A stretch of 64,000 bases of DNA, from positions 331,978-395,977 of the forward strand of contig CAYOXC010000001.1 in the NCBI GenBank assembly GCA_964407865.1, written 5' to 3'. The position numbers and the translations under genes were made by a program. Source of the DNA: an uncultured Gammaproteobacteria bacterium. Its GTDB lineage: Bacteria > Patescibacteriota > Patescibacteriia > Magasanikbacterales > GWA2-37-8. The notes under the pieces are model-generated. The model was not told the origin of the DNA, did not search any database, and saw only the letters and a program-made list of their open reading frames with translations. Position 1 is the stretch's first letter. Each line of letters opens with the position of its first letter. This document shows, piece by piece, positions 11,530-48,164 of the stretch.

Positions 11530-11532
11530 ATA

Positions 11533-12177: not shown

Positions 12178-12181
12178 AATG

Positions 12182-12730: not shown

Positions 12731-12741
12731 AAACTAAATAT

Positions 12742-13824
12742 TTAATTTAATACGGTAAATCCCATGATTAGCATGCTGTCATTTTCAGCATGAATCTTCA
12801 TCATGATAGGAATCGTGTTTGTTGGCAATTGCTTGGTCGTCCAATTTGCACCGCCATCTACGCTTTTGTAGAAAGTCGAACGAACATGAACATTTTTATC
12901 TCCCAAAATAGTGCCGGTGTAATAAATTTCATTCTGATTTTTAGGATTAACAGTAAAAGCATATATTTGCACCGCACCCGGCCTAGTCAAAAGTTGTAGG
13001 TCTTTCCAAGTAGCACCAGCATCGTCTGAACGTAAAATTCCATATTTGCTTATCCAAAACAAACTGTTATTTTCAGCCGCATTAAGATGAATGCGATAAA
13101 ATGTTTGGCTGTCTCGAAAATCTTTCATTCCCTCGCGCAAATCCTGCCAAGTTATACCTTTATCATCAGTGCGATAAAGTCCAGATTTTAAACTAGCGAC
13201 ATAGACGCGTCCAGGCACCTGTTTATCAACGACCAAATCCTGAAGTTGAAAATTAAAACGTTTTATAACAGTCCAGCTGCGCCCGCCATCTCGACTGATA
13301 ATCACATCACCTCCGACTTCAATTCCCCATATGGTTCCGTCGCTTGGATCAATATCTAAAGCGGCAATTCTCTCACCGGTTCGTTCTTCTAAAAAGGCCT
13401 GGGACCAAGTGCGAGAACAGTCTTCGGTTTTATAAATATGAGCGCCGTCACTGGCAAAAATGTTGCATTTATCACTCGGATCAACTGCCAAAGCATAAAT
13501 AAATTTACCGCTCAAAAACGGCACTGACTGCCAGGTATCCCCATTGTTATAGGTATAATATAATCCTTGCCCGCGGGTACCTAGATAAAAAGCATTAGCA
13601 TCACTTGGATCTTCAAAAATACGATAAACCTTAACTCCGCCAATAGTTTTTAAACCTTCAGCAGAGGGAAATGCCATAGCTGCGTTCCACGTCTCACCTT
13701 TGTCAGCAGACCTAAACATTCCCATAAGTCCCGATTCAGAACTTTTTTTGAAAGATATACAACTGGCTCCAAGAAAAATAAAAGCAGCGACAATAACTAA
13801 AGCTAAAATTTTAATTCGAGTCAT
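12742..13824 (-). CDS. exported BNR/Asp-box repeat beta-propeller protein (Ycf48-like)
   Basis: Signal peptide; repeated SxDxGxTW motifs (GETWNA, GDTWQS, GGRSWT, KGITWQ, GATWKD, GGANWT). Confidence 0.6.
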   Translation of the reverse strand: MTRIKILALVIVAAFIFLGASCISFKKSSESGLMGMFRSADKGETWNAAMAFPSAEGLKTIGGVKVYRIFEDPSDANAFYLGTRGQGLYYTYNNGDTWQSVPFLSGKFIYALAVDPSDKCNIFASDGAHIYKTEDCSRTWSQAFLEERTGERIAALDIDPSDGTIWGIEVGGDVIISRDGGRSWTVIKRFNFQLQDLVVDKQVPGRVYVASLKSGLYRTDDKGITWQDLREGMKDFRDSQTFYRIHLNAAENNSLFWISKYGILRSDDAGATWKDLQLLTRPGAVQIYAFTVNPKNQNEIYYTGTILGDKNVHVRSTFYKSVDGGANWTTKQLPTNTIPIMMKIHAENDSMLIMGFTVLN

Positions 13825-17020: not shown

Positions 17021-18517
17021 TTATTTTGTTCTAACCTCAAACTCGACATCCTTTAATAATATTGTGGCATAATCATAACGCATATCACCATGCTTTTCTG
17101 TTTTTTCACCAGGTGTTGCAAACGCTAATTTCTTATCAAAATTCAGGCCTAAAGTCAATTTGGTGTTATTTGTACCAAGTTGCTTTTGTACATAGAGGCG
17201 GTAATCATTGGCATGTAATCGCGCGCTCACTTCCGGCGAAACGTAATATTCAAAACTAAGACTTTTGGTCTGGCCAGGTTCAATCGAAATAAATGTCCCG
17301 AACCATTGTCGACCGTTTTCAATACCCTGATCAGTTTTTCTCGGCTCATTGGTTTTATCTGATTTCATGGAACCGCTCGTTTTTATGAGTTTTGAACCAA
17401 CCGGTACATAAACCCTGGCATAGTCGCGATAGCGAGTCGTCCGCCAGTCAAATTTACCTTTGTGCACAAAAGTCATTGTTGCCCGCGCTATATATTTACC
17501 GCTAGTAGTAGTGAATAACTCGTAATTTAAACTGCGCTCTATGGCCACATCAGTTTTTAAAGCACCCAAATTAGCATCAACCCAAAATAAATAATCATAA
17601 TTTATTCCCGTCATCTTTCCTGCCCAATTTTTTGCTTCGAATACATCCTGATACTCAACCAGCGGTGAATACATCATAATTTGCTTTTGCTCAAGCATTT
17701 TCTCAATTAAGGATTTATACTCATCCCAATGAAAAAAAACATTTTTTGCCGCCATCATCACCACGCTGTGTGTTAATTCAATTAATAATTTTTTTCGCTC
17801 GTCAAAAGATATCCCCTTGCTTTCAAAACCATACTCAACTTCATATTCCAATTTTTCAGTAAAATTTTTAGAAGTAAATTCAATACCGCCGGCTTTAACC
17901 GGACCGGTTATTTCAAGCAATTCCTCAATAACGGTTGGGGTAAAACCAATAACAGAATCTATTTCCATGGCCTTAACACCATTTTCTTTACGATAAAGCT
18001 CTAGAGATTTAGCTGCGGCAGTGGCAAAATCCGGTGACCAGTTGGAATCGCGAAAATACCAGCGTTCAAGACCAAGAAATTCACGGATCGGATCAGGCGG
18101 ATCAGATGGAAAATTTTTAGGCGCCAAATTATCCAAAATTTCAGTACCTTCAACTTTCACAATTTCTGGATTAGCGCGATTTAGTGTGATAACCGCATAA
18201 GTACCAATAAAGCCGCCGGCCGGACGAAGTTCTGTATTATTTAAAAATAAAACTAAATGGGTTTGCGGACGCTCAAAACCAAAAAATTTCTGAACAAAAT
18301 TAGCTCCGATCTTTTCAGAGATCATCACTATCTCGCCGTTTTCGTTTACAACCGGTTTATTCACTTCTTCCATGCTAAAAAATCTTTCTCCAACCTGAGA
18401 AATAATGGCTTTTTGCAAACCACCGGAACGATACCAAAAAAACACAAAGGTTCCGCTAGCTACTAAAAGCGCGGCAAGAGTAATTAATGAAATTTTTATA
18501 AATCTGCCAAATTTCAT
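17021..18517 (-). CDS. DUF4012 domain protein with N-terminal membrane anchor
   Basis: ELRPAGGFIGTYAVI motif and the size and architecture of the DUF4012 family, which is often found near cell-envelope genes. Confidence 0.5.
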   Translation of the reverse strand: MKFGRFIKISLITLAALLVASGTFVFFWYRSGGLQKAIISQVGERFFSMEEVNKPVVNENGEIVMISEKIGANFVQKFFGFERPQTHLVLFLNNTELRPAGGFIGTYAVITLNRANPEIVKVEGTEILDNLAPKNFPSDPPDPIREFLGLERWYFRDSNWSPDFATAAAKSLELYRKENGVKAMEIDSVIGFTPTVIEELLEITGPVKAGGIEFTSKNFTEKLEYEVEYGFESKGISFDERKKLLIELTHSVVMMAAKNVFFHWDEYKSLIEKMLEQKQIMMYSPLVEYQDVFEAKNWAGKMTGINYDYLFWVDANLGALKTDVAIERSLNYELFTTTSGKYIARATMTFVHKGKFDWRTTRYRDYARVYVPVGSKLIKTSGSMKSDKTNEPRKTDQGIENGRQWFGTFISIEPGQTKSLSFEYYVSPEVSARLHANDYRLYVQKQLGTNNTKLTLGLNFDKKLAFATPGEKTEKHGDMRYDYATILLKDVEFEVRTK

Positions 18518-20013
18518 ACGGCGGCTCTTTTTTTAACTGATACATTAAAACCCAAATATTTTCCAAAAGCCAAACGTGTCACCGCATCAATACAAGGAAT
18601 AGCTGAAAAAATAATCAATGAAACCGGCAACAAAACCCACTGCAATACCATAATTAAATATTTATATTTAGGATGAGCTGTTGGTCGAATCGGCAAAATA
18701 AGCATGCTTAGAATAGCAGAGATGATAAGACCAAGCATAGCTAAAGTCATCATTACTTCGAGAACATGGGGGGTGTTAAAAAAAAGAGCACTCTGTCTTA
18801 CTGCATCCCCCGCCACCCAAAGAGGCAAACGTCCAACCACAGTAATAATTATTGCGGTTAAAGCCCAGCTCCATTTTCCTTCCCATTCGTGAAATATAAG
18901 CGGTAATTTTTTCCACCATGCAATCTGCGGGTATTTATTCCACTGCCACATTAGATATGGTATATGCTCCGAACCCCAGGCCCAGCGGCGTTGCTGATAA
19001 TATAAATTTTTAAAGCTTTTCCACAGCTTTTCGTCGCGCGGCGTATCCATGGAAACTGGGATATAAAGCGGTGTAACCTCATAATCACCTTTGTTGGCAA
19101 ACCAACATTGATAAAAAATGCGCGAATCTTCGCTGACAATATTTTTGGCATGACCGCCACAGTCTACTATTGCCTTAAAGCTCATGCTGTGGGATGAAAA
19201 TGTAACCATATTGTCCATTCGGGCAAGCGAAAACATTGTCCAAAAAGTGGTACCCAAGGCCATAATACGAAGAAATGCCGGTGATTCCCAAAGATTATTA
19301 TTGTAAAGAGTGACTGGCTGAAAAGAGCTGTGGTCCGGACGCGGATGGCGACAATACATGTAATTAAGATGGGCAAAATACTGGTGATGAACAATTGTAT
19401 CAATGTCAAAAGCCGAAACAATTATATCAATATATTTCCAACCTTTGCTATCAGCATATTTTTTGAATTCCTTCTCAATCCAATTTAGATGAGAGCCCTT
19501 GCCCGGTATTTCACCCGGCAGCTTATCGGGATGGGTATAAAATATCAAATCAGCAAATTTACCTTGATATTTCTCCTCTATTAAAGGTTGTACCTTGTGC
19601 CACAAATTAATTTTTCGCGCTTCACCGGAAATGACAACGCATATTTTTTCCGCCGGATAGGTAGATTTGATAACTGCATCAAGAGTGGCTGAAACGACTG
19701 ATACATCTTCATTGGTAAATGGAAAAAATATTACATTCTTCTTGTCCTGCCAATCAGGAAATTCGGTTTTTAAGCGATCAAACCAGCTGATTTTTAAAGC
19801 TCTGCGAAAGCGACTCCATGAAAGGATTAAAAAAAATGAAAAATATACCACGCGCAAAGTCCAGTATAAATCAAAAACGATAATAAAATATATCATCCAA
19901 AGCGGCCGGACAAATGAAAAAAGTATGCTCAAAATCAAAAATATCCAAATACTAATTGCCGGCAGCATTTCATATATTCGATATTTTTTAAAATCAGATA
20001 TTATCATAGTCAT
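18514..20013 (-). CDS. processive family 2 glycosyltransferase (cellulose/chitin-synthase-like) membrane protein
   Basis: Multiple TM helices flanking a GT-A domain; QQRRW (QxxRW) motif. Confidence 0.7.
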   Translation of the reverse strand: MTMIISDFKKYRIYEMLPAISIWIFLILSILFSFVRPLWMIYFIIVFDLYWTLRVVYFSFFLILSWSRFRRALKISWFDRLKTEFPDWQDKKNVIFFPFTNEDVSVVSATLDAVIKSTYPAEKICVVISGEARKINLWHKVQPLIEEKYQGKFADLIFYTHPDKLPGEIPGKGSHLNWIEKEFKKYADSKGWKYIDIIVSAFDIDTIVHHQYFAHLNYMYCRHPRPDHSSFQPVTLYNNNLWESPAFLRIMALGTTFWTMFSLARMDNMVTFSSHSMSFKAIVDCGGHAKNIVSEDSRIFYQCWFANKGDYEVTPLYIPVSMDTPRDEKLWKSFKNLYYQQRRWAWGSEHIPYLMWQWNKYPQIAWWKKLPLIFHEWEGKWSWALTAIIITVVGRLPLWVAGDAVRQSALFFNTPHVLEVMMTLAMLGLIISAILSMLILPIRPTAHPKYKYLIMVLQWVLLPVSLIIFSAIPCIDAVTRLAFGKYLGFNVSVKKRAAV

Positions 20014-21099: not shown

Positions 21100-23391
21100 A
21101 TGAACAACACGATTCTGTTCAATGAGTTTTTTGTTGAAGGCGAAAATCAGGAGATATCTCATGTTCTGCTACACGTAATACAACCTTCTACTCCAAGTGA
21201 GGAAAAAGAGAAGGGTTATTTTTTTGCGGTTTGCGAAATTAACAATGGCAACAAAGACGACATATTCAACCTCCAAACACTGATGGATCGAGTAGAAAAT
21301 GAGTATTATGAAACGCCTAATGTGCCAGGAAAGAATACTTTAGAAACAATTCTTGAAAAAATTAACCGTGAAGGTTTTACCTTGTCTCGCCCGGAAACAG
21401 ATTTAAGCTGCCTTATCGGCGTACTAAAAGAAAGCGATCTGACATTTTCTTTTTGTGGTCAACCAGAATCTCTTTTGTTTTACAAAAATAAATCTGAACA
21501 ATATCAAACAATGGATCTGGTCGCTCAAAACGAAGGAGAGCAAGAAGATGAAAAACTTTTCTCTCAAATAATACAGGGCAAAATTAGCCCAGGTGATTAT
21601 TTTTTTGGCGGCACAGGTCATATCGCCAGCTGTTTTAATCACGACCGTTTACAAAAAATTATTACTGGCGGACGAACCGCTGAACAAAGCGCCGTGCATT
21701 TTGAAAAAGTTTTAAGCGGAATTAGAAACGGATACTCATTTGGAGGATTTATTATTCATGTAGCCGCTACTCCAAGCCGTCTAAAAACTGTTGACAAGTC
21801 AATAGAAGATAAAAAGATGCTTTACGATACAGAAAGACAAACCGCAAAAACACTGACACCTTCACTGCTTGGCAACCTAAACACAAAAGTAAAATCGATG
21901 ATGAATAACAATGAAGATGAGGACGAAGATGAATACGAAGAAGAGAGTGGAAAAAACGTAATTGAAACAAGTGAACCGCCAAAGACTCATGTTTCGACTC
22001 TAGTTACAAAAACCCAGACCAAACCCTATCCAAACAAAACATTGGCAAAACCAAGTGCTGAGTATGCCAAAATCATATTAAAAGGCATATGGATTGGTCT
22101 GCGCTATATTGGTATGGGAATATACTGGTTATTCTTTATGCTGGCAAAAATTATTATTAACATTGGTCGATTTGTCATTATGCTTGGAATTGTAGCAACG
22201 AACTTTAAAAATCGGCGTCGCGCTATTTTAGAATCCTGGACTGAAAGCTGGCATCATTTCACGCGCTGGTTTAAAAACTTGCCTCTTTTAACTAAAATTT
22301 TGGCACTGGCTTCCATTGTCTTTGCTGTTGTCTTTATGGTAAGCGTTTTCTATCTGCAAACAGAAAAAAATCGAGCCGAAAACGATCGTATTTATCGAGA
22401 ATCACTGCAAACTATAAAAAATAAAATTGATGCTGCGGAAAGTTCTTCGATTTACGGAGACGAAGTGCAGGCTAAGACCATATTGGAAGAAGCAAGAACG
22501 TTGATAGCTCAATTTGTCTGCCGGCCGATCGACAATGCCGCTTGTAATGATTTTACTGATCGTCTAAACAAATTGGGTTCAAAACTACGGAAAATGGAGA
22601 CCCTCTCCCCTAACCTAATTATTGATTTTAATAACCAAGGTTACTCTGGTTATGAAAAATTCTTAAAAATTGAAAATAAAATTCTTGTCTTTTCAGCAAA
22701 TACTTCAACCGTGCTGGTATATGATATTATGACAAAAGAAACAAAAGCACTAACACTCTCCGATGGATCTTTGAGTGGTTTTATTTGCGGTGCTGTTCCA
22801 AAAGAAAATGATTATGCCGCACTAATCGGCGCCGACAAAAAATCACTAGCGATCTTTGACCCAAAAAATATTACACTAAAAACGGGCGGAATTTCATATT
22901 CAGGAGAACCGGATATCCGAGCTATAGCCATATATAATCGTCGTCTTTATTCGCTTGATGCAGCCGCTAACCAGATTTACCGTCATGATAATATTAATGC
23001 TGGTTTTGGTTTAGGCCGCGACTGGATTTCGGAGCAAAACTTAAACCTTCGAGACGGAGTTGACATTACTATTGACGGTGATCTTTATATATTAAAAGAA
23101 AATGGAGAAATTCTTAAATTTAACAAAGGGATACCGCAGCCAATCAATTTAGAAATTGTTGATCCGACACTAAATTCTGGCGATGAAATATGGACTTATA
23201 CAGACTTAGCTAATATTTATATTTTAGACTCTGTTAATAAACGGATGATAATATTTGATAAAACGGGTAAATTTCTACGCCAGCTTACCGCTGATGAATT
23301 TTCCTCACCCACTTCAGCGGATATTGAAGAAGCAGCAGGTTTGGCTTACATACTCGATCAAAGTAAACTCTACGAAATTAAACTAAAATAA
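21100..23391 (+). CDS. large hypothetical membrane protein: cytoplasmic N-domain, central TM hairpins, C-terminal beta-propeller-like domain
   Basis: Hydrophobic segments around aa 330-420; C-terminal repeated (L/I)Y(I/S)LD motifs reminiscent of NHL/beta-propeller blades. Confidence 0.4.
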   Translation: MNNTILFNEFFVEGENQEISHVLLHVIQPSTPSEEKEKGYFFAVCEINNGNKDDIFNLQTLMDRVENEYYETPNVPGKNTLETILEKINREGFTLSRPETDLSCLIGVLKESDLTFSFCGQPESLLFYKNKSEQYQTMDLVAQNEGEQEDEKLFSQIIQGKISPGDYFFGGTGHIASCFNHDRLQKIITGGRTAEQSAVHFEKVLSGIRNGYSFGGFIIHVAATPSRLKTVDKSIEDKKMLYDTERQTAKTLTPSLLGNLNTKVKSMMNNNEDEDEDEYEEESGKNVIETSEPPKTHVSTLVTKTQTKPYPNKTLAKPSAEYAKIILKGIWIGLRYIGMGIYWLFFMLAKIIINIGRFVIMLGIVATNFKNRRRAILESWTESWHHFTRWFKNLPLLTKILALASIVFAVVFMVSVFYLQTEKNRAENDRIYRESLQTIKNKIDAAESSSIYGDEVQAKTILEEARTLIAQFVCRPIDNAACNDFTDRLNKLGSKLRKMETLSPNLIIDFNNQGYSGYEKFLKIENKILVFSANTSTVLVYDIMTKETKALTLSDGSLSGFICGAVPKENDYAALIGADKKSLAIFDPKNITLKTGGISYSGEPDIRAIAIYNRRLYSLDAAANQIYRHDNINAGFGLGRDWISEQNLNLRDGVDITIDGDLYILKENGEILKFNKGIPQPINLEIVDPTLNSGDEIWTYTDLANIYILDSVNKRMIIFDKTGKFLRQLTADEFSSPTSADIEEAAGLAYILDQSKLYEIKLK

Positions 23392-24534: not shown

Positions 24535-25050
24535 ATGAATCAAAACCAGGTAGAAAAAATTTTCGCCCCAAATACTGAAACAGAGGGCGAATTAAGGCGT
24601 CCAGAAACAACAACGACGCCTGAATTAGAATTAAACAAGGAACAAGCCAGTGAGGGGCTAGAAACTACAAAGGAGCAGGATTTTAATCATGAACAAATTA
24701 CACCAACCTTACCGCAAACAAAAAAGAAAATAACCCTCCCGTCTCCGGCTCGTGACAAAACAACTATCAAGGTTGAACAAATACTCTCTGCGGGACTAGA
24801 AGACACATATAAATCCCTGTCTCCTTTAGCTCAGCAAGAATTCAAACTTAAGGGCGAAGAAACTGCTTTAAAAATTCGCGAAATGCTTCGCCAAACAAAA
24901 ATTAAAGTAAAAAAAATTTTTAAACTTATTATTGAATGGCTTTCAATGTTACCCGGAGTAAACCGTTTCTTTCTAGAACAAGAAGCAAAGATTAAAACTG
25001 ATAAAATTATTGAGCTCAAAAAACAAGAAAGCAATAATATTGAAATTTAA
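24535..25050 (+). CDS. hypothetical acidic protein, upstream partner of the ATPase gene
   Basis: Extended -10 (TGgTATAAT) promoter at about 24513; 4-nt gap to the downstream ATPase gene. Confidence 0.4.
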   Translation: MNQNQVEKIFAPNTETEGELRRPETTTTPELELNKEQASEGLETTKEQDFNHEQITPTLPQTKKKITLPSPARDKTTIKVEQILSAGLEDTYKSLSPLAQQEFKLKGEETALKIREMLRQTKIKVKKIFKLIIEWLSMLPGVNRFFLEQEAKIKTDKIIELKKQESNNIEI

Positions 25051-25054
25051 ATAA

Positions 25055-27589
25055 ATGGAACCTCAAATAACCTTTAATCTGGAATCTTTTTTAAGCACAG
25101 ATACATTGTTAATTATAGGTGCTGCTTTTGGGGCTGTTTTTTCTTTTATTATTTTTATTAAAATTTTAAGAGCGATATTTCACCAACGCGCTAAAACAAG
25201 CAAAGCTTTTCACAAAACAATTTTATTAGTTAAAATCCCTAAAGAAATCGGAAACGGCTCTGAGTCTTCCAGCGGATCAGAAAATATTTCAAAAATTCGT
25301 GAACAAATAGCAGCTGCAGAAACTCTTTTCTCAACCGTTGCCGGTCTAAAAATAGACAAGGGGTTTATGACATGGCTTACCGGCCGAAATGATCATTTGT
25401 CGTTTGAAATTGTCGTTAAAAATGGAAAAATTTCTTTTTATGTGGCAGTACCTGATGGAAGTCGTGATTTTCTTGAACAGCAACTACTAGCACAATATCC
25501 TCACGCACAAATATCTGAAGAATCTGATTATAATATTTTTAGACCAGAAAGCCATATTGTTGGCGCTTATTTATATTTTAAAAATAAATCAGCCTTTCCT
25601 TTCAAAACATACAAACAACTAGATTCCGACCCTCTCCTTGCCATGCTTAACCCATTAAGTAAACTTGATAATAACGAAGGGGCGCTTATCCAATATATTG
25701 TCAGACCCGCTTCCTCAATTTGGCGTCAACAGGGTGTACAAATGACACGGGCGATTAGAGGCGGACAAAAATTTGAAAATGTAATGAGGCAAAGCAAATC
25801 TTCCAAAATGCTCAGTAAGATTGGTAAAAACTTCAATAAAAAAAGCTCACAAAATCAAAGTTCATCTGCTGAGCCTTACAGAATGACTCAACAGGAAGAA
25901 GAGATGGTGAAAAACATGGAAGAAAAAATTAGCCAAGGAGGAGTTGAGCTTACAATTCGATTGGTGTGCGCTGCACCATTTCAAGAAAAGGCAAAACTGA
26001 ATTTACAAAACATTATTAACTCTTTTAGTCAATATAACATCTACCGTTTTGGTAATTCATTTGGGGCGGCCGTACCGGCAAAACCAGCTAAATTAATACA
26101 AGACTCAATTTATCGCTCAATGAACACTAAGCATTATATGGTGGCCAATACCACAGAAATGGCCAGTTTTTGGCATTTGCCTCTACCCTCAACAGAAACG
26201 CCTCATATTGACTGGCTGGGTGCACGCAAAGCCCCACCACCGCTTAATATGCCCACAGAAGGCATTGTGCTCGGCCGCTGTCTGTATCGCGGCGAAGAAA
26301 AAATTGTAAAAATGAAAAAAGGAGATCGTCGACGACACCTTTATACTGTTGGTAAATCTGGCGGCGGTAAATCAGTCTTTATTCAAAATCTGGCTGTTCA
26401 AGATGTAAAAAATGGAGATGGAGTCTGTGTTATTGATCCACACGGAGATTTTGCGGAATACGTACTTCAACACGTACCCAAAGAAAGAGCTGAAGACGTA
26501 ATTTATTTCAATCCTGCAGATGTGGAGCGGCCGATTGGAATGAATATGCTTGAAGTAAAAAATGAAGAACAAAAAGATTTCGCTACTCAGGAAATGATTT
26601 CTATTTTTTATAAAATGGTTACTGACCCCTCTATGATCGGGCCGATGTTTGAACACAATATGCGCAATGTCATGTTAACCCTTATGTCAGACATGGAAAT
26701 GCCTGGGACAATCGCTGAAATACCGCGCATGTTTACTGACGACGCTTTTGTTGAAACTTGGAAGAAAAAGCTTAAAGATCCGGTGGTACTTTCTTTTTGG
26801 GAAAAGGAAATGGCGAAAACTTCTGATTTTCACAAATCAGAAATGCTTGGTTATTTAATCTCAAAAGTCGGACGCTTTGTTGAAAACTCCATGGTGCGCA
26901 ATATTATTGGCCAATCGCATTCTGGTTTTAATTTTCGTGAAGTAATGGATAATAAAAAAATATTATTGGTTAATCTGGCAAAAGGTCTGGTCGGAGAAAT
27001 AAACGCCAACCTGCTAGGCATGATAATTGTATCTAAACTGCAAATGGCAGCCATGGAAAGAGCGCAATTACCCGAAGAAGAACGCAATGACTTTTATTTA
27101 TATATCGATGAGTTTCAAAATTTTATCACCGACTCTATTGCCACAATTTTATCTGAAGCGCGCAAGTACCGTCTTGATTTAATTATTGCCCACCAATATC
27201 TTAAACAGCTTGAAGATAACAAAGGAAAGACAACTGTTAGGGATGCGGTGCTGGGCAATGCTGGCACGATTGTGTCTTTCAGAATCGGCATTGAGGATGC
27301 AGAAATATTACAAAAAGAATTTGCACCGGTTTTTTCCGCCTATGACCTGATAAACGTTGAACAATATACTGCTTATATTAAACTGCTTATTGACAATACC
27401 GCTGCTAAACCGTTTAATATGATGACCTACCCGCCAGAACCCGGCAACAAAGAGTTGGCCGCGGCAATCAAAGAACTTTCACGCCTTAAATACGGCCGTC
27501 CGCGCGAAATTGTAGAAGCGGAAATCATGGAACGCTCGGCTCTAGGATCAATAGGAGGCGAAAATAAACTTAGCGAATCTTCGCTTTAA
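25055..27589 (+). CDS. FtsK/HerA/VirB4-TraG superfamily P-loop ATPase with an N-terminal TM anchor and a novel N-domain
   Basis: Walker A VGKSGGGKS, VIDPHGDF (DPKGE-like), Walker B YLYIDEFQNF, AHQ sensor motif; N-terminal 400 aa homologous to ORF 32302..33681. Confidence 0.6.
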   Translation: MEPQITFNLESFLSTDTLLIIGAAFGAVFSFIIFIKILRAIFHQRAKTSKAFHKTILLVKIPKEIGNGSESSSGSENISKIREQIAAAETLFSTVAGLKIDKGFMTWLTGRNDHLSFEIVVKNGKISFYVAVPDGSRDFLEQQLLAQYPHAQISEESDYNIFRPESHIVGAYLYFKNKSAFPFKTYKQLDSDPLLAMLNPLSKLDNNEGALIQYIVRPASSIWRQQGVQMTRAIRGGQKFENVMRQSKSSKMLSKIGKNFNKKSSQNQSSSAEPYRMTQQEEEMVKNMEEKISQGGVELTIRLVCAAPFQEKAKLNLQNIINSFSQYNIYRFGNSFGAAVPAKPAKLIQDSIYRSMNTKHYMVANTTEMASFWHLPLPSTETPHIDWLGARKAPPPLNMPTEGIVLGRCLYRGEEKIVKMKKGDRRRHLYTVGKSGGGKSVFIQNLAVQDVKNGDGVCVIDPHGDFAEYVLQHVPKERAEDVIYFNPADVERPIGMNMLEVKNEEQKDFATQEMISIFYKMVTDPSMIGPMFEHNMRNVMLTLMSDMEMPGTIAEIPRMFTDDAFVETWKKKLKDPVVLSFWEKEMAKTSDFHKSEMLGYLISKVGRFVENSMVRNIIGQSHSGFNFREVMDNKKILLVNLAKGLVGEINANLLGMIIVSKLQMAAMERAQLPEEERNDFYLYIDEFQNFITDSIATILSEARKYRLDLIIAHQYLKQLEDNKGKTTVRDAVLGNAGTIVSFRIGIEDAEILQKEFAPVFSAYDLINVEQYTAYIKLLIDNTAAKPFNMMTYPPEPGNKELAAAIKELSRLKYGRPREIVEAEIMERSALGSIGGENKLSESSL

Positions 27590-27636: not shown

Positions 27637-29202
27637 ATGTCTACTCTATATAGAAAATATAGACCACAAAAATTTTCTGACTTAATAGGACAGGAACATC
27701 TAACACAAACGCTAATAAATGAAATTGCTACAGATAGGATTGCGCATGCTTATCTTTTTTCGGGACCTCGAGGTATTGGTAAAACAACAATGGCTCGTCT
27801 TTTGGCAAAAGCGATAAACTGCGAAAATAGAAAAAAAGAAGAATCAGAACCATGCAATAAGTGCTCCTCTTGCTCTGAAATTGCCGCTTCTCGAAATATT
27901 GATGTAATTGAAATTGACGCGGCTTCGCATACTGGCGTAGATAATGTCCGAGAAAATATTATTGACAATGCGCAGTTCAAACCAACCCGCTCACGATATA
28001 AGGTATTTATTATCGATGAAGCTCACATGCTTTCAACCAGCGCATTTAATGCCCTATTAAAAACTCTTGAGGAACCCCCTGCGCACGCAATATTTGTTTT
28101 AGCTACTACAGAATACCATAAACTGCCAGCTACTATTATTTCACGCTGTCAGCGCTTTAATTTTAAAAAAATTAAAGAAGAAACAATGCTCAAAAAATTA
28201 GAATCCATCGCCAAAGATGAGGGTGTTAAAATTGACAAAGAAATTTTAAAAAGAATTGTGGAAAAAAGCGAGGGCTGTATGCGCGATGCAGAGAGTCTGC
28301 TGGGTCAATTAATTTCATTGAATGTCAAAAAAATTGGCGCAGAGGAAGCTTCCTCAATTTTACCAGCGGCAGAAATCGATTCTATTCTAAATTATCTCAA
28401 AGCTATAGCTGAAAATAATGTTAAGGAAGCGATTGAGATAATTGACCTGGTTGTAAAAGAAGGCGCCAGCTTAGATGAATTTGCTTTACAAACAATTGAA
28501 GTTCTCAGGGCAATAATGGTTGCCCAATCCGGTCACACTGCTTTTGGTCTTGATTTTTCAGAAAATGATAGAAAAAGAATACGCGAATTATCAAGCCTTT
28601 TTAGACGCGACAGATTAATTGCTTTAATTGACGGAGCAATAAAACGACGCTCAGAAATGAAATACGCACCCGTACCACAATTACCATTAGAACTTTTAGC
28701 CGTAGAATTTTCTAACAAGGATGATAAAAATATAAACAATACACCACCACCTTCAGGTTCTAACGATAAACCAAAAAATACTTCAGAATCTATAGAAACG
28801 AAAGATGTGAATCCAATAATCAATTCAGATGAGACTCCAGTAATCAATCCAAATGTCACAAACAACGATGCTCCTGCGTTAAATATGACCGAGGCTAATA
28901 ATTTTTGGTCAGAAGTTGTCCTGCAAATTTCTGAGAAATTTCCTTCACTGGCCTTTGTTCTTAAAATGGCAGAAATTACTGAAACAAATGGAAATTGTGT
29001 TAATATTGCAGTTCCCTACTCATTTCATAAAGAAAAAATTGAGGAAAATAAATGTCGTAAAGCAATTGAAAATATATTTAGCGATCTAGCAGGCAATCCG
29101 GTCTTGATAAGCTGTTCGCTAAAAGACACTGCCCATTCACCTGCTATTGACGCAGAATTAAATAATCTTGCCGCTGAATTCGGCGGAGAATTAGTTAATT
29201 AA
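27637..29202 (+). CDS. dnaX: DNA polymerase III subunit gamma/tau
   Basis: LYRKYRPQKFSDLIGQEH, GPRGIGKTT, zinc module CxxC, SRCQ motifs. Confidence 0.9.
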   Translation: MSTLYRKYRPQKFSDLIGQEHLTQTLINEIATDRIAHAYLFSGPRGIGKTTMARLLAKAINCENRKKEESEPCNKCSSCSEIAASRNIDVIEIDAASHTGVDNVRENIIDNAQFKPTRSRYKVFIIDEAHMLSTSAFNALLKTLEEPPAHAIFVLATTEYHKLPATIISRCQRFNFKKIKEETMLKKLESIAKDEGVKIDKEILKRIVEKSEGCMRDAESLLGQLISLNVKKIGAEEASSILPAAEIDSILNYLKAIAENNVKEAIEIIDLVVKEGASLDEFALQTIEVLRAIMVAQSGHTAFGLDFSENDRKRIRELSSLFRRDRLIALIDGAIKRRSEMKYAPVPQLPLELLAVEFSNKDDKNINNTPPPSGSNDKPKNTSESIETKDVNPIINSDETPVINPNVTNNDAPALNMTEANNFWSEVVLQISEKFPSLAFVLKMAEITETNGNCVNIAVPYSFHKEKIEENKCRKAIENIFSDLAGNPVLISCSLKDTAHSPAIDAELNNLAAEFGGELVN

Positions 29203-29212: not shown

Positions 29213-30253
29213 ATGAAATACAAGTTATTTTTTTTAATTTGCGCTGTGTTTTTTCCTGTAGCAGTATTTTCTGCTGACATGGAAACAAAAAATATTGCAG
29301 TACCTTTTATTCCAGAAGTTCATGATGGTATTTGGCTTCCACCGTGGAACAATGCCTGTGAAGAATCGAGTATAACAATGATTGATCAATATTATTTAGG
29401 GGTAAAAAGCATAACTGTTACCAAAGCTCGAGCGTTGATGCTACCTCTTTTTGATATTGAAGATACAATGTTTGGTTCTCACGAAGACACAGATGCGGCT
29501 CGAACTGCGCAACTAGCCAATCATGAAATGTCATTTTTGGCGACTGTAAAAGAAAATCCAACTATAGAAGAAATAAAGGAACAAATAAGAAATAATCGAC
29601 CTGTAATATCGATGCATTATGGGTTTGGGTTAAACAATCCGCATCACCGTTTTCGTCGAGGAGGATCTTCCTATCACACCTTAGTTATTAGTGGCTTTGA
29701 TGACAATACTAACGAGTTTATTATACAGGATTCTGGCGACTACAGCGGTTCAAACTATAGGTACTCATACAATACAATTATGAATACCATGCACGATTTT
29801 GACCATATGACCGGCAAAGCTGATGGACCAAAAAGGGTTGTTTTTACCATGAGACAAATGTTAGCCAAGGCAGAAGGTAGTACCAGGATCTATTATATAG
29901 TGAATAATACTAAACACTATGTCACCCACCCGGGCTTATTTAAACAACACAACTGGGAATGGCGACGGGTAAAAATTGTATCAAAGGAATTTATGGCACA
30001 ATTTACAGATGGCGACGCTATTACTTTTGAAACAAATCTTGATGATACAAAATCTGCGGCTGGCGCAACTGTTCCGGATCGGATAGTAAAAGCTCAGGGC
30101 AGTACTAGAATCTATTTGATAAGAAATAATTACAGGCATTATATTTCACATCCGGATCTGTTTAAAATTCACGGCTGGTCTTGGTCGGCTGTAGAAACTG
30201 TAACAAAGACATGGCTTGATAGCCTGCCCCTAGGTGATGCGATCAGAGAATAA
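29213..30253 (+). CDS. exported papain-like (C39-like) peptidase-domain protein with two tandem C-terminal repeats of about 45 aa
   Basis: Signal peptide; Cys (NACEES) and His (YHTLVISGFDD) arrangement; repeats EGSTRIYYIVNNTKHYVTHPGLF and QGSTRIYLIRNNYRHYISHPDLF. Confidence 0.4.
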   Translation: MKYKLFFLICAVFFPVAVFSADMETKNIAVPFIPEVHDGIWLPPWNNACEESSITMIDQYYLGVKSITVTKARALMLPLFDIEDTMFGSHEDTDAARTAQLANHEMSFLATVKENPTIEEIKEQIRNNRPVISMHYGFGLNNPHHRFRRGGSSYHTLVISGFDDNTNEFIIQDSGDYSGSNYRYSYNTIMNTMHDFDHMTGKADGPKRVVFTMRQMLAKAEGSTRIYYIVNNTKHYVTHPGLFKQHNWEWRRVKIVSKEFMAQFTDGDAITFETNLDDTKSAAGATVPDRIVKAQGSTRIYLIRNNYRHYISHPDLFKIHGWSWSAVETVTKTWLDSLPLGDAIRE

Positions 30254-32301: not shown

Positions 32302-33681
32302 TTATCCATAAGGCAGTTCTTCGGGTTTTGGCAACTCTTTTATTTCTTCGTTTTTTGTTTGCTGAACTGGCTTGTGTTTAAGAGGCTTTTCAAAATTTTC
32401 TACCGGCAAATTAATTGGTGGCTCACTTCTTTTAATATCGGCTTTTTGCATTAGTGGCGTCTTAACAAGTGGTAATGGAAAATGCCAAACCGTCGCTAAT
32501 TCTTCAATGTTTAAAATATATGGATCATCAGAAATTTTCAACGCGCGACCTCTGTAGGCTCGAGCAATTTTATCGCCACTCATTATTTTCGCTTTAAAAC
32601 CATTGCGATTATTGATATAAAACTGGTTGAGAGAGCCAATCATACCACCGATGCACTTATGAGGCTTAAATGACTCTTTTTGAGCCACATAGAGCACTCT
32701 TACGCGAGACTTAAACCCAAGTTTAGAGATCTTGTCTTCAATGGATTCAACCACTGCTCGTGCCCCTGGTGATAAATCTGAAATCTTACCAGGAGAATCC
32801 TCTTTCTTCTTTAATTCTTCAGCGCTAAAATCATTATTCCATGCTTGTATTGCTGTTTTTAAAACCGCTTCAGGAGCTGAGCCGATATAATTAACAAGCG
32901 TCTTTTTGGGCGGCGCTTTTTTACCCGAGATTATTTTTTTAACCAAATCAATTCCGGCTGCCTTCCAGCTATTTTCAACCGGCAACACACTAATCTGCAT
33001 CCACAAATTTTCACCAGGTCCTACACGGCTAAAATTTTCAAGAATCGCTGCCATTGGATCAGCAAAAACAACATCTTTGGAAATATTATACTCAAACTCA
33101 GAATAAGTCCGAATGGGATAAACTTCATCTTCAGCAAGCGAAAACTCAATCCCCTGCGCATCATGTGTTTCATTTGGAAACTTGTCCGGTATTGAAAATA
33201 CATAATCTTCAACTTCAGTAATCTCAGCTTCAGAGTATTGGGCATATATAGCAGCTTCCACTAAATCCCGAAACTCAATTTCGGTTCGGACTAAAAACTG
33301 AATATAACCCTCAATGCTTACTATTTCAAAACTAAACCATTTAGATACTTTTCCTAAAAAATACCGATCATATACTCCGTAAGTTGAGAGGGCGCCGCTT
33401 AAGTGAGTAAAAACCTGTTCAACTGCTTTTGGAGATTGAACAAACTGCGCAGGAATATCCACGGCAAGCACTGACCATTGCCAAGTGTTAATGTACTCTT
33501 CCTGCTTAGCGGCGAGCCAACGGGTCAAGGCCTTGTTAAACAACCAAATGGCTGCAAGCCACCAAAGAAAAACAGCAAAAATAGCCCCCATCTGCTGCCA
33601 AGGAGAAAGGGTAAAAAAATTCTGCCAAAAAGACATGTCTACACTAAAGCCAAAAGGCGTATCCAGAAGCAGCGGCTCCAT
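32302..33681 (-). CDS. membrane-anchored protein homologous to the N-terminal domain of ATPase 25055..27589 (no ATPase domain)
   Basis: Alignable blocks FSFEIV/LSFEIV, AQYSEAEITE/AQYPHAQISE, and the shared C-terminal motif WH(F/L)PLP...PP(I/L)N(L/M)P. Confidence 0.5.
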   Translation of the reverse strand: MEPLLLDTPFGFSVDMSFWQNFFTLSPWQQMGAIFAVFLWWLAAIWLFNKALTRWLAAKQEEYINTWQWSVLAVDIPAQFVQSPKAVEQVFTHLSGALSTYGVYDRYFLGKVSKWFSFEIVSIEGYIQFLVRTEIEFRDLVEAAIYAQYSEAEITEVEDYVFSIPDKFPNETHDAQGIEFSLAEDEVYPIRTYSEFEYNISKDVVFADPMAAILENFSRVGPGENLWMQISVLPVENSWKAAGIDLVKKIISGKKAPPKKTLVNYIGSAPEAVLKTAIQAWNNDFSAEELKKKEDSPGKISDLSPGARAVVESIEDKISKLGFKSRVRVLYVAQKESFKPHKCIGGMIGSLNQFYINNRNGFKAKIMSGDKIARAYRGRALKISDDPYILNIEELATVWHFPLPLVKTPLMQKADIKRSEPPINLPVENFEKPLKHKPVQQTKNEEIKELPKPEELPYG

Positions 33682-33687: not shown

Positions 33688-33846
33688 TTATTTTAATGCA
33701 TTGAATATTCCGCCATAGACGATTAATAGAGCAAAGGCGGTCCACCACCAGCCAAATCCAGCTGAAAAATAACCGGCTAAAAAAGCTAAGAAACTGATGA
33801 TCGTAATAATAAATGCCACAAAATGCCGCGTTGAATTATCGGACAT
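33688..33846 (-). CDS. small two-TM membrane protein (52 aa) immediately upstream of 32302..33681
   Basis: ORF MSDNSTRHFVAFIITIISFLAFLAGYFSAGFGWWWTAFALLIVYGGIFNALK; 6-nt gap to the downstream gene. Confidence 0.35.
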   Translation of the reverse strand: MSDNSTRHFVAFIITIISFLAFLAGYFSAGFGWWWTAFALLIVYGGIFNALK

Positions 33847-33951: not shown

Positions 33952-34863
33952 TTAAGCTCTTCGTTGCCACTTTTCTATGTACACAAGCAAAGGCGAAGCT
34001 ATGAATATGGAAGAATATGCACCTGAAGCAACGCCGATAAGAAGCGCTAGGGCGAAATTATGGATAGTCGTGCCGCCAAAAAAGAATAATGCAAATAAAG
34101 GCAAGAGAGTCGTTAATGTGGTATTTATAGAACGCATTAAAGTCTGGTTCAGACCTAAATTTACTATTTCATCAAAAGACTCGCCAGTGCGGCGCAATAA
34201 TCGTTCACGTATACGGTCAAAAACAACAATCGCGTCATTAATTGAATAACCAAGCACTGTAAGCATGGCCACAACAAAAGCAACATCTATTTCAGTGCCT
34301 TTATAATGTCCGAGAACTGCAAAAATACCAATCACAAGCAATACATCATGCACAACAGCGGCTATAGCCATGGCTCCGTATTTCCAACTAGCAACCGGAC
34401 GAGAAACCGCGCGGAAGGCATAGGCGACATAGCCGATTATTCCGAAACAAACAAAAATAATTGCCCAAAGTGAACGTTGGCGGAGCTGCGAAGAAACAGA
34501 TGGACCAATCATTTCAAAACGTTTTTCAACAATCTTGTTATCTTCACTCTCAAATTCAGCTATTATTGCTTCTAACACTTTGGCATGAGCTTCCTCAGTA
34601 ACCAATGCAGTTCTAACAATTACACCATTTTCTCCGGTATTTTGAATTAAGGCATTACCAGCATCGTTTTTTTCTAATAAAGTTTTTAATTCAGTTACTT
34701 CCGGCCGGTTAGCAGAAAAATCTAGTTCCATCAAAGAACCACCGGTGAAATCAATGCTCCATTTCAGTCCCCAAACAACAAGAACGATAATCGATAAGAT
34801 AGTAACTAAACCGCTAAAGGTCAGCCAGATTTTCGAATATTTAATGAATGGTATTATTTTCAT
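33952..34863 (-). CDS. secF: protein translocase subunit SecF
   Basis: Six-TM SecF topology and conserved motifs. Confidence 0.85.
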   Translation of the reverse strand: MKIIPFIKYSKIWLTFSGLVTILSIIVLVVWGLKWSIDFTGGSLMELDFSANRPEVTELKTLLEKNDAGNALIQNTGENGVIVRTALVTEEAHAKVLEAIIAEFESEDNKIVEKRFEMIGPSVSSQLRQRSLWAIIFVCFGIIGYVAYAFRAVSRPVASWKYGAMAIAAVVHDVLLVIGIFAVLGHYKGTEIDVAFVVAMLTVLGYSINDAIVVFDRIRERLLRRTGESFDEIVNLGLNQTLMRSINTTLTTLLPLFALFFFGGTTIHNFALALLIGVASGAYSSIFIASPLLVYIEKWQRRA

Positions 34864-34874: not shown

Positions 34875-36941
34875 TTATTTTTCCGGCTGAGCCGCTTCTT
34901 TTTTGTATCCCAAAAACATCCAGTTAGCTTCATCCTTTTTAAACCAGCTAAAAATTAAACGCATCAAATTTCTCGTTATAACAATTGCTGTAAACATACT
35001 GACCAAGATACCTAAAAATAACGTTACGGCAAAACCTTCTACAAACCCTGCGCCCATCCAAATCAAAAAGATACAGGATATCAAAGTGGTAATATTAGAA
35101 TCTCTGATAGAACTCCAAGCTCGCATAAAAGCTTCTTCTACGGCAGAGCGAAGATTTTTACCAAAACGTAATTCTTCTTTTAAACGTTCAAAAACCAATA
35201 TGTTCGCATCCACCGCCATACCTATAGAAAGTATAAAACCAGCGATACCAGATAGCGTTAATGTTACTCCAATCAACTTGAAAATTGCCAGGGTTATTGC
35301 GGCGTAAGAAAAAAGAGCTAAGACAGAAATCAGACCAGGTAAACGATAATAGAGAATCATCATGATAATAACAAAAAGTAATCCCCAAAGCCCGGCGTTA
35401 AAACTGGCTTTTAAAGATTCCGCGCCTAAGGTGGCATCAACTTTTTGCTGTCCTATGAGTTCAATTGCCACTGGCAAAGCACCTGAGTTCAAGCGTTGTG
35501 CTAAAAGCCTCGCCTCTTCCCACTGGAAATCTCCGGAAATAACCGCACTACCATCTAAAATAGGCTCGTTAACTCTTGGCACACTTATTGGCTCACCATC
35601 TAAAAAGATTGCGACTGGCTTTCCAACATTGCGTTCGGTAATTTCTCCGAAAAGTTTTGCTCCCTCGTCATTAAAAGTGAGACTAACCTGAACTTGGCCG
35701 CTACGCTGATCTTGAAGAACCTCGGCTTTTTTAAGTTGTTTGCCGGTTAATCCTGTAAACTTCCACTGATCGGTCGGCGGTAAAATATCAGCGGGTTTTT
35801 TTGTCTCAACAAAAATTCTTGCCACCTGATACTCCTTTGGAGTTTCTTCGTTTCTTTTATAAATCAAATGCCAACCATAATCAGTTTCGATCGGACCGAC
35901 TATCTCACCAACAGAAGCATCAAAAGCGGCTTTTTCAAAAGCCTCAACCATTTGCCCTCTCTTGAACGTGCCGAGATCTCCTCCGCTATCGCTAGCACCA
36001 GGTTCAGTTGAATGTTGCTTGACTAGATCTGTAAAATTATCGATATTAGCTTCATTTCTCAATGACTCGATCTTTGCTTTTGCGTCTTCCCGGCTCAAAC
36101 TTGAACCACAAAGCTCTGCGCCTTTATAACAAATTAAAAGATGCGAAGCAGTGACACGTTTCTCGCCATCTCTTTCGTTTATTTTCTTCAAAAGATTGAG
36201 TCCATTTGCTGTTTGAATAATTTCTTTAGTTGAAATAGCGCCAATTTTATTATTTTTTGCCCAATCATAAATTTCCGGATAAATCAATTCATCAATATAA
36301 CCTAAACTGCCGGCGTCTTTTTTGCTAGCCTCATCTTCTGAATACTTATTTACCAATAAAATAAAATCTGCGCCTTTAGCAAGTTCTTTTTGGACATTTT
36401 TAATTTTTGTTTCTGCGTTGGTATTAAAAATATCCATCTGTTGTTTTTCCTCAGTAGTTAGCTCTCGTGCCGGCTCTGTATTTTCTTCTTTAAACTCTAA
36501 AACTGGCGTTTCACCGATCATTTTTATTGCATCCTTAACATTGGCCACACCTGGTAATTCCACAATCACCCGGTGTTCTTCTCCAACTCTAGTTGTTTGT
36601 ACTAATGGTTCTGCCACACCCAAGCCCCCTCTAACTCTTCGTTCAATCACATCGCGCACACCCTCAACAGCATCAGCTCGCTCCATCGGCGGAATATTGT
36701 CGGTCTTAGCTGTATATTCAAGATGTGCTCCACCCTGCAAATCAAGGCCTAAATTAAAGCCTTTTTCAGGGAATTTTGGTATTCCAAGGTTTGTTTTAGC
36801 GTTTATCTGATTGATTACACTATTAACAGATGTTGGGGTAGCGATAGCTACTGCCACCAATACCAAAACCACAATGCCAGTAACACGCCATTTAACTTCT
36901 GACTTAGTTGCGATTTTCACAACATTTCTCGTTTTAGCCAT
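34875..36941 (-). CDS. secD: protein translocase subunit SecD with a tandem parvulin (PpiC-type PPIase) insertion in the periplasmic domain
   Basis: SecD TM core at the C-terminus; periplasmic region contains ASHLLICY...SGGDLGTFKRGQMVEAFEKAAF...GWHLIYK (parvulin signature) plus a second partial parvulin-like segment. Confidence 0.8.
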   Translation of the reverse strand: MAKTRNVVKIATKSEVKWRVTGIVVLVLVAVAIATPTSVNSVINQINAKTNLGIPKFPEKGFNLGLDLQGGAHLEYTAKTDNIPPMERADAVEGVRDVIERRVRGGLGVAEPLVQTTRVGEEHRVIVELPGVANVKDAIKMIGETPVLEFKEENTEPARELTTEEKQQMDIFNTNAETKIKNVQKELAKGADFILLVNKYSEDEASKKDAGSLGYIDELIYPEIYDWAKNNKIGAISTKEIIQTANGLNLLKKINERDGEKRVTASHLLICYKGAELCGSSLSREDAKAKIESLRNEANIDNFTDLVKQHSTEPGASDSGGDLGTFKRGQMVEAFEKAAFDASVGEIVGPIETDYGWHLIYKRNEETPKEYQVARIFVETKKPADILPPTDQWKFTGLTGKQLKKAEVLQDQRSGQVQVSLTFNDEGAKLFGEITERNVGKPVAIFLDGEPISVPRVNEPILDGSAVISGDFQWEEARLLAQRLNSGALPVAIELIGQQKVDATLGAESLKASFNAGLWGLLFVIIMMILYYRLPGLISVLALFSYAAITLAIFKLIGVTLTLSGIAGFILSIGMAVDANILVFERLKEELRFGKNLRSAVEEAFMRAWSSIRDSNITTLISCIFLIWMGAGFVEGFAVTLFLGILVSMFTAIVITRNLMRLIFSWFKKDEANWMFLGYKKEAAQPEK

Positions 36942-43900: not shown

Positions 43901-43901
43901 T

Positions 43902-45587: not shown

Positions 45588-45590
45588 AAA

Positions 45591-47417: not shown

Positions 47418-47606
47418 ACACCGTTTAATGTCTGTACTCTTTAATTATTTAAAATTTATTCTATCTGCCACAGCTAATAACCAATCCCGTGTGTTTGTCT
47501 ATTTTTTATATCCAACCCCCTTAGATAAACATCTTTTACTTATTCTACCACCCAAATTTGATCTATTTAAATAAACACACTGGAAGTTGTATTGCTGGGC
47601 ATAATA

Positions 47607-48155: not shown

Positions 48156-48164
48156 TAAATAATT

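Follow-up and report, generated by a model that had tools for sequence, protein, structure and literature searches.

The Patescibacteria are a very large, mostly uncultured bacterial group (PMC12102498). Their apparatus resembling a type IV secretion system (T4SS) was the first T4SS demonstrated to be indispensable to the cell that carries it (PMC12102498, PMC10633639, PMC12857230). Homologues of the VirD4-type type IV coupling protein (T4CP) were reported in 2918 of 3035 Patescibacteria genomes, with 5713 copies. Only 148 of these copies were located near virB4, and possible exaptation was mentioned by the authors (PMC12102498). VirB4 and T4CP homologues were detected with separate hidden Markov model profiles in this survey (PMC12102498). 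The numerous "orphan T4CP" genes have been tallied to date but not dissected (PMC12102498, PMC10633639, PMC12857230). In Southlakia epibionticum, the essential T4SS cluster contains no recognisable coupling protein (PMC10633639). Here, a window of 64,000 nt from a Patescibacteria contig (CAYOXC010000001.1) was analysed, and statements on the gene content of its own genome cover this window. The window encodes an 844-aa protein in which a DUF8128 domain is fused to a T4CP-like ATPase, and a 459-aa paralog of the DUF8128 part. In the following, type A denotes the fused DUF8128-ATPase and type B the split set downstream of secDF. These two paralogous systems, fused type A and split type B, occur throughout Patescibacteria. 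By its Pfam matches, the type-A/type-B family was presumably counted among the T4CP homologues of the survey (PMC12102498). The original prediction for this DNA had named four open reading frames (ORFs), the two paralogs and one small ORF in front of each, and all four were present.

The type-A protein was encoded at 25055–27589 on the plus strand, as supported by ORF calling, Pfam, BLASTP and a structure model. It comprised a transmembrane (TM) helix, a DUF8128 domain resembling the VirB4 N-terminal domain (NTD) in its predicted fold, and a P-loop ATPase of the VirD4/TraD class. Topology was derived from Kyte-Doolittle hydrophobicity and flank charges. The single N-terminal TM helix covered residues 17–35 (25103–25159) with a Kyte-Doolittle peak of 2.56, and the AlphaFold2 (AF2) model showed a long helix at residues 16–52. 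Net charges of −3 on the N side and +5 on the C side of the helix gave an N-out/C-in orientation, so that both the N-domain and the ATPase are predicted to be cytoplasmic. DUF8128 was assigned to approximately residues 54–400 (25214–26254) by BLASTP, alignment and PF26449, and ended with the invariant linker motifs WHLPLP (residue 373) and PPLNMP (residue 395). The P-loop ATPase domain followed at approximately residues 405–830 (26267–27544). It carried the Walker A motif GKSGGGKS at residue 433, VIDPHGDF at 459, the Walker B motif YLYIDEFQNF at 681 and AHQ at 712, and these catalytic motifs lined up with those of TrwB in a phmmer alignment. The motifs and the TM helix had been recognised in the original prediction and were all recovered. 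The nucleotide-binding domain (NBD) of the 844-aa protein belongs to the VirD4 clade, and both of its Walker motifs are intact. In the AF2 secondary structure, eight helices spanned residues 504–632 between the Walker A and Walker B strands. At the level of the model, this all-helical segment corresponds to the all-alpha insert in the NBD of T4CPs.

The C-terminal half exceeded the Pfam gathering cut-offs of TrwB_AAD_bind (3e-10, covering profile positions 8–309 of 387), T4SS-DNA_transf (5e-8), DUF87 and TraG-D_C, and gave a sub-threshold hit to TrwB in a phmmer search against the PDB. NCBIfam TraD equivalogs stayed below their cut-offs, with 50.9 vs. 366 bits for TIGR03743, 30.9 vs. 647 bits for TIGR03754 and 22.1 vs. 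521 bits for TIGR02759. CagE_TrbE_VirB and AAA_10 were not matched in Pfam and NCBIfam, and VirB4_plasma and TraC reached just 19 bits. The Pfam scan of the 844-aa protein gave no match to FtsK_SpoIIIE, FtsK-alpha, FtsK-gamma or 4TM. With T4CP families matching and FtsK domains absent, the earlier placement of the ATPase in the VirB4/VirD4 branch of the FtsK-HerA superfamily, apart from canonical FtsK, was borne out. In structure comparisons, the ATPase obtained fold scores of 17.7 with the C-domain of DptH, 17.6 with the VirB4 C-terminal domain (4ag5), 17.1 with TrwB and 16.2 with DotL. Scores were 14.8 for HerA, 14.6 for Cag-beta and 14.3 for TrwK, followed by 8.1 for TcpA and 7.9 for FtsK. 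Domain order and fold scores therefore indicate the overall plan of VirB4, an NTD plus an ATPase, with a motor that is not FtsK. By sequence, the type-A motor appears T4CP-like (VirD4/TraD/TrwB), and in the predicted structure it is equidistant from VirB4 and VirD4.

The N-domain was shared with the 459-aa paralog. BLASTP aligned residues 26–402 of the ATPase with residues 32–428 of the paralog over 414 columns with 24% identity (E = 2e-24). An alignment of both DUF8128 families, the ATPase N-part and the paralog, comprised 149 sequences and contained 17 invariant columns, including the WH.P...P...PP..(L/M)P block. The aligned sequences thus put the homology of the two N-domains far beyond chance, and both results agree with the expectation that the 459-aa ORF is related to the N-domain only. 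This domain had also been described as novel and unrecognised, which was not upheld. PF26449 (DUF8128) was annotated on database proteins identical to both window ORFs, P0001 for the paralog and P0121 for the ATPase. Local Pfam hmmscan, NCBIfam and PDB-sequence searches gave no match for the N-domain or the paralog; the Pfam copy scanned did not contain the PF26449 model, and a missing match there is not equivalent to absence of the protein from Pfam. The AF2 model of the paralog, based on 149 sequences, reached a pLDDT of 89.7 and a pTM of 0.81, and the DUF8128 region of the 844-aa model had pLDDT values mostly above 90. Foldseek with the DUF8128 model returned TrwK chains (7o42, 7o43, 8rtb and 8rtd) for all top 12 matches, with E-values from 1e-5 to 7e-3 and probabilities of 0.96–1.0. 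The predicted fold of DUF8128 is that of the VirB4 NTD. The literature search yielded no paper on DUF8128 and none on VirB4-NTD/TrsD.

Upstream of the type-A gene, a 171-aa partner ORF (24535–25050, plus strand) stopped 4 nt before the ATPase start. It was supported by the ORF call and by conservation in relatives. The ORF upstream of the orthologue in locus L001 was 52% identical (E = 1e-47), and tblastn detected a homologue upstream of the ATPase in 6/6 loci in which the region was captured (L006, L015, L017, L023, L024 and L067). The 171-aa ORF is a real conserved gene. Its conserved portion was the helical C-terminal part of about 100 aa. The protein had been called acidic and proved to have a net charge of 0, with 28 D+E vs. 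28 K+R, and no TM or hydrophobic segment. Neither a VirB3 model nor any family of Pfam, NCBIfam, PHROGs or PADLOC matched it.

At least 502 relatives of the paralog were found in the GTDB species-representative genomes scanned, and the best 80 loci were fetched and compared. The type-B protein, with DUF8128 only, was encoded at 32302–33681 on the minus strand. It comprised a TM segment at approximately residues 30–52, a region at 69–400 predicted to resemble the VirB4 NTD and a disordered tail with an LPYG end. A 52-aa hairpin protein with two TM segments (MSDN..RH ... GWWWT) was encoded directly upstream (33688–33846, minus strand; ORF and tblastn), and its ORF stopped 6 nt before the paralog start. 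Matches to the hairpin upstream of the paralog were detected in 41/80 loci with tblastn, which is the count used here; the regex count (27/76) was too low owing to a crude ORF rule. Together with the 171-aa ORF, this agreed with the proposal that each of the two genes is preceded by a small partner ORF. Hairpin ORFs of 52–55 aa were located, for instance, at 20931–21092 in L001, 9837–10001 in L002, 9732–9890 in L004 and 9746–9913 in L084. In the contigs looked up, public annotation does not call the hairpin ORF, and the 52-aa protein matched neither a Pfam family nor a VirB3 model. The 52-aa ORF is a real conserved gene, and by analogy its product may hold a VirB3/TrsC-like position. The 459-aa and 52-aa proteins are the membrane subunits of the type-B set.

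A type-B ATPase gene was found directly after the DUF8128 gene in 31 more distant loci (within L046–L084). The encoded ATPases were 42–47% identical to residues 405–844 of the window protein. In L084, the order was secF, a 55-aa hairpin, a 513-aa DUF8128 protein and a 683-aa ATPase (11521–13572). In L052, a 476-aa DUF8128 protein was followed by a 595-aa ATPase (11438–13225), and a split cassette was also present in L046. The type-B ATPases contained no TM helix and no DUF8128 domain and are predicted to be soluble. They ended in a treble-clef zinc finger (PF23477, zf_Tbcl_2, CxxC-x17-CxxC) and a long Lys-rich low-complexity tail, a sequence feature that suggests nucleic-acid binding. The family was large, with at least 8000 matches. 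No type-B ATPase was present within 10 kb in any of the 40 closest loci (L006–L045), and the window itself holds one such T4CP-like ATPase, the type-A one. At these 40 loci, no type-B motor gene is left in place. With split cassettes elsewhere and no motor gene at any of the 40 closest loci, the "ATPase-less paralog" is shown to be the scaffold subunit of a second system that is split by nature. The original prediction had read the copy without ATPase as a sign of a regulatory or structural partner or of a decayed second system. It is not an ad hoc copy, as about 31 related loci have the separate ATPase gene, and the idea of a decayed second system came close to the truth. The paralog is still under selection, and every locus examined had it as a full-length ORF. 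Of 120 paralog homologues, 110 ended in [LMI]x[YF][GAVS], mostly LPYA or LPYG, after a disordered linker. The C-terminal tetrapeptide of the window paralog was encoded at 32302–32313, and the pattern looks like a short docking motif, for which it is a candidate. Between secF and the DUF8128 gene, 18 type-B loci carried a gene whose product combines Sigma70_r4 with HARE-HTH (e.g., L054, 8878–9984). In S. epibionticum, the sigma factor SEML1_0294 likewise precedes the non-essential T4CP-like SEML1_0293.

The best 120 homologues of the type-A ATPase were 72–81% identical, and all named ones originated from Patescibacteria. They carried PF26449, PF10412, PF02534 and PF12696. An exhaustive phmmer search with type A yielded 5774 representatives of 50%-identity clusters at E <= 1e-30. 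The best 150 type-A representatives were mostly fused proteins of 790–1000 aa, and some reached 2000 aa. Some type-A orthologues of 1200–2000 aa had a long extension after the ATPase (P0260–P0272, with 2006 aa for P0268; L092, 8001–14021). The ATPase was C-terminal in some type-A proteins of about 1450 aa (P0365). Distant type-A orthologues were nearer to the window type A than to type B in both domains. Identity to relatives amounted to 62–79% for full-length type A, 57–80% for SecA, 46–71% for SecD, 39–59% for DnaX and 36–75% for the paralog. The type-A ATPase is therefore among the most constrained proteins of the region and about as conserved as SecA. This SecA-like conservation suggests that type A is probably core machinery and not a leftover of a mobile element.

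Published genetics in S. epibionticum link type A to an essential gene by synteny. SEML1_0142 was described as a "TraM recognition domain-containing protein" of 1019 aa, with a P-loop region at 381–800 and no assigned domain at residues 71–380 (PMC10633639). It was essential at all time points in transposon sequencing (Tn-seq), and the small ORF in front of it was called GD/ES/ES, so two of the three time points classed it as essential (PMC10633639). The locus order of YifB on the minus strand, small ORFs, the ATPase and gyrB mirrored L091, where the corresponding protein of 997 aa carries DUF8128 and is a type-A orthologue. SEML1_0142 would accordingly be the type-A orthologue of S. epibionticum, on the basis of synteny and annotation and not of its sequence. 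A second protein, SEML1_0293, comprises 921 aa with TrwB_AAD_bind at 402–719, lies downstream of a sigma factor and is non-essential (PMC10633639). The dispensable "t4cp" mentioned in PMC12102498 is probably this protein. The canonical FtsK, SEML1_0096, was essential by Tn-seq (PMC10633639).

Relatives were also found outside Patescibacteria, and the architecture is not specific to the Candidate Phyla Radiation. The PHROG family phrog_5156 (PHROG 5156) matched residues 111–828 of the 844-aa protein at E 8e-87 and the paralog at 4e-13. Two-domain homologues were present in the Bacillus phages G (gp156), SP-10 (gp203), SBSphiC and others. In phage G (L088, 1258–5400), gp156 was preceded by the VirB4-type ATPase gp155. 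In phage SP-10 (L086, 4475–7343), an overlapping 114-aa ORF preceded the ATPase in the gp202–gp203 region, which belongs to the replication/early region. Plasmids of Bacillus, Streptomyces/Embleya, Clostridium and haloarchaea encoded two-domain homologues, and Sulfolobus plasmids matched as well. On a 24.7-kb B. subtilis plasmid (L089), the homologue was located directly before Replic_Relax, TcpC, TcpE and a VirB4 (AAA_10) gene, the place that a coupling protein takes in a conjugation module. A Halorussus plasmid carried the set in split form, with a 376-aa protein of DUF8128 only, which matched the window paralog in BLASTP (2e-6), and a T4CP-like ATPase. The phage and plasmid relatives therefore identify the family as coupling-type ATPases of mobile elements that became fixed chromosomally in Patescibacteria.

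The neighbourhood of both genes consisted of conserved housekeeping genes, which were taken as context only. Upstream of the type-B genes lie secF (33952–34863) and secD (34875–36941) on the minus strand. Among the 80 loci, SecF was encoded on the same strand upstream of the paralog in 62, SecD in 61 and SecA in 43. Downstream of the type-A gene, the plus strand carries dnaX (27637–29202) and a gene for an exported Peptidase_C39_2 protein (29213–30253). Each of these two was present in 16/80 loci, and the same order was seen in L001 and L004/L005. The C39_2 protein has two internal C-terminal repeats of about 70 aa and is encoded directly after dnaX in the 16 related loci; it could be a cell-wall or peptide-processing enzyme. 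It had been put forward as a candidate envelope component. It is a conserved neighbour, but dnaX parts it from the ATPase and no functional link was shown. The TM/beta-propeller protein (21100–23391), proposed as a further candidate of this kind, was found in 1/80 related loci (L006), so that no linkage is shown. Clustering of neighbours in the 80 loci gave secDF, secA, dus, mnmA, alaS, folD and the sigma-r4/HARE-HTH protein as recurrent genes, that is, housekeeping genes only. No FtsK gene was present in the window. Among distant type-A orthologues, dnaX was a neighbour in L093 and L094, gyrB-gyrA in L091 and L092, an FtsQ-like POTRA_1 gene in L094 and T2SSE/T2SSF genes in L095, and type A usually lies near dnaX or gyrBA. 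The synteny of secDF, hairpin and DUF8128 also occurred in many GTDB representative metagenome-assembled genomes titled "uncultured Gammaproteobacteria bacterium" (L008, L010–L014, L016, L084 and others). Their SecA was 55–73% identical to that of the window, and the titles look like placeholder or wrong taxonomy. Elsewhere in the window, an anaerobic energy-metabolism cluster (41073–49163, minus strand) encodes an ADP-forming acetyl-CoA synthetase-like protein, subunits of a 2-oxoacid:ferredoxin oxidoreductase, the large subunit of an [FeFe]-hydrogenase and a NuoF-like flavoprotein. A DUF4012 protein and an adjoining 499-aa multi-TM protein without Pfam match are encoded beside mreB (17021–20013, minus strand), and the DUF4012-MreB order was also found in L002.

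The architecture and family assignment of type A are held with high confidence. Regarding its function, type A would, like TrwB and VirB4, assemble into a ring on the cytoplasmic side of the membrane, with the VirB4-like N-domain as the membrane-proximal scaffold. ATP hydrolysis would drive or gate the passage of a macromolecular substrate. Our guess for this substrate is a nucleic acid, because of the zinc finger and basic tail of type-B ATPases and the plasmid homologues beside a relaxase-type gene. Most likely, type A is a domesticated, chromosomally scattered coupling or energising ATPase of the patescibacterial T4SS-like apparatus. The motorless type-B protein, which has kept its docking-type motif LP(Y/F)(A/G), most likely survives as a scaffold or adaptor in the membrane, and its assembly partner may be the type-A motor or an unlinked protein. 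Taken as a whole, this explanation, a blend of the architecture and the coupling claim, has slightly better than even chances, and the T4SS-coupling mechanism in itself falls somewhat short of even and is offered tentatively. Several observations weigh against it. VirB4 was reported in 2417 Patescibacteria genomes vs. 2918 with T4CP homologues (PMC12102498), so at least some of the latter work without a T4SS. VirB6, VirB8 and relaxase genes, which the original prediction had suggested looking for, were absent from the window, and the Pfam scan of its approximately 45 ORFs revealed no VirB4 or T4SS channel gene either. SecA-level conservation and recurrent dnaX and gyrBA neighbourhoods are unusual for coupling proteins. 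Foldseek TM-scores to TrwK were modest at about 0.35, and phmmer and the 149-sequence DUF8128 profile found nothing among PDB sequences even at E <= 10, so the kinship of DUF8128 with the VirB4 NTD is visible at the fold level only. The ATPase part of the full-length AF2 model was moderately confident, with a pLDDT of 77.8 and a pTM of 0.51. The absence of the type-B ATPase applies to the locus and the 64-kb window, and loss and relocation within the genome are both possible. The orthology of SEML1_0142, finally, draws on gene order and annotation. Two of these points, the conservation and the neighbourhoods, also speak for an exapted coupling protein that acts as a T4SS-independent housekeeping translocase, either on the cell's own DNA in replication or segregation, as a DNA uptake motor or on another macromolecule. 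T4CP homologues in 96% of Patescibacteria genomes vs. 80% for VirB4, the 148/5713 copies near virB4 and the exaptation raised by the survey's authors (PMC12102498) fit this alternative. So do dnaX in the window, L001, L004, L093 and L094, gyrB-gyrA in L091, L092 and S. epibionticum, POTRA_1 in L094 and the zinc finger and Lys-rich tail of type-B ATPases, which suggest nucleic-acid binding. However, synteny is weak evidence in genomes below 1 Mb, as these have almost only housekeeping neighbours. There is no vacancy for a segregation motor, since the FtsK of S. epibionticum (SEML1_0096) is itself essential, and comEC deletion abolishes competence and spares viability (PMC12857230), which makes an essential role in DNA uptake unlikely. 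The plasmid relatives, moreover, lie in conjugation modules, and a housekeeping translocase, although the main alternative, is on balance doubtful. A further-reaching proposal regards DUF8128-T4CP proteins as a living intermediate between VirB4 and VirD4. In Patescibacteria, it would serve as an essential T4SS-independent translocon in fused and split form, with the motorless type-B protein now a regulator or adaptor of type A. Motor, VirB4-like scaffold and small TM protein would together make up a minimal machine for carrying nucleic acid or protein across the membrane of these ultra-small epibionts or along it, and we consider this proposal unlikely.

The remaining alternatives are far less probable. 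The homologues on plasmids and in Bacillus phages could point to a remnant, left by an integrated conjugative element or a prophage, whose genes decay without host function. Yet neither gene is damaged, and in the related loci examined their orthologues sit at the same places in the chromosome. Identities of 62–79% for type A and 36–75% for the paralog without frameshifts, and a window of uniform base composition with no integrase, relaxase or repeat boundary, argue against decay. Neither patchy presence among close relatives nor flanking att sites or an integrase were seen. Such a remnant is highly improbable. To the same degree, an anti-phage defence ATPase of the DptH, MADS mad8 or HerA type finds little room. 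The mad8 profile of PADLOC matched the P-loop region (E 4.6e-16), but the likeness is confined to the shared P-loop fold, where VirB4 and TrwB score the same. No other MADS, Dnd or Dpt component was encoded nearby, methyltransferase or nuclease partners in a variable island were not observed, the paralog and the small ORFs had no PADLOC match, and near-universal presence with SecA-level conservation is the opposite of defence-island behaviour. The defence assignment was rejected as a generic P-loop likeness in a conserved housekeeping context. A canonical cell-division FtsK/SpoIIIE would share the FtsK-HerA superfamily, the membrane anchor, the chromosomal location and the adjoining dnaX. The protein has no FtsK Pfam domains and one TM helix instead of four, and a separate bona fide FtsK exists in a Patescibacterium that has two T4CP-like genes of the same domain layout. 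Canonical FtsK was rejected on domain content, the fold score of 7.9 and this separate FtsK in S. epibionticum, and its probability is negligible.

The gene family is already annotated, and its abundance in Patescibacteria has been published. The searched literature held no description of the VirB4-like DUF8128 fold, the distinction of types A and B, the linkage of type B with secDF, the uncalled hairpin ORF, the motorless state in the closest loci or the connection between type A and a gene essential by Tn-seq. For the orphan T4CPs, the analysis provides a VirB4-like N-domain, as predicted by modelling, two conserved paralogous systems and small partners, one of them uncalled in public data. 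One of the paralogs appears essential in published Tn-seq when followed by synteny. A vague annotation is thereby turned into specific testable hypotheses on which ATPase powers what. The results bear on the divergence of VirB4 and VirD4, and the model offers a putative fold-level annotation for a domain of unknown function that also occurs in phages of Bacillus and on plasmids of Bacillus, actinomycetes and haloarchaea.

Among known systems, EccE of the mycobacterial type VII system ESX gave a much weaker, partial fold match of about 170 residues with no sequence similarity, and serves as a lead only. FtsK/SpoIIIE shares the ASCE P-loop superfamily and the nature of a membrane-anchored translocase. 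VirB4/TrwK is resembled in the N-terminal fold predicted for DUF8128. Unlike VirB4, type A has no sequence match to VirB4 families, carries a TM helix of its own and has no VirB3, VirB6 or VirB8 gene nearby. The TrsC-TrsD-TrsE set of the Gram-positive T4SS of the pGO1 type, with TrsC as a small VirB3-like TM protein, TrsD as a protein of the VirB4 NTD only and TrsE as VirB4, offers an analogy for type B, with a small TM protein, an NTD-like protein and an ATPase in the same order (L084, L052). TrsD is remotely homologous to the N-terminal portion of VirB4 and abundant in Patescibacteria (PMC12102498). The analogy is one of gene order only, and type-B cassettes differ in adjoining secDF instead of virB4 and in a T4CP-like ATPase with a zinc finger. 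With the T4CPs VirD4, TrwB, TraD and DotL, the differences lie in the N-terminal part and the context. Canonical T4CPs have a short two-TM anchor directly before the NBD, whereas type A has one TM helix and a DUF8128 domain of about 350 aa. Type A is also far below the NCBIfam TraD equivalog cut-offs, chromosomal, conserved like SecA, unlinked to relaxase and mating-pair formation genes and accompanied by a split paralog. Relaxase and mating-pair formation genes were absent from the window and from the gene clusters that recur at the 80 loci. The likeness to T4CPs comprises TrwB_AAD_bind, T4SS-DNA_transf and TraG-D_C above cut-offs, the Walker A, DP.GD, Walker B and sensor-Q motifs, a predicted all-helical insert at the position of the all-alpha domain, a membrane-anchored N-terminus and plasmid homologues that hold the T4CP slot beside a relaxase-type gene.

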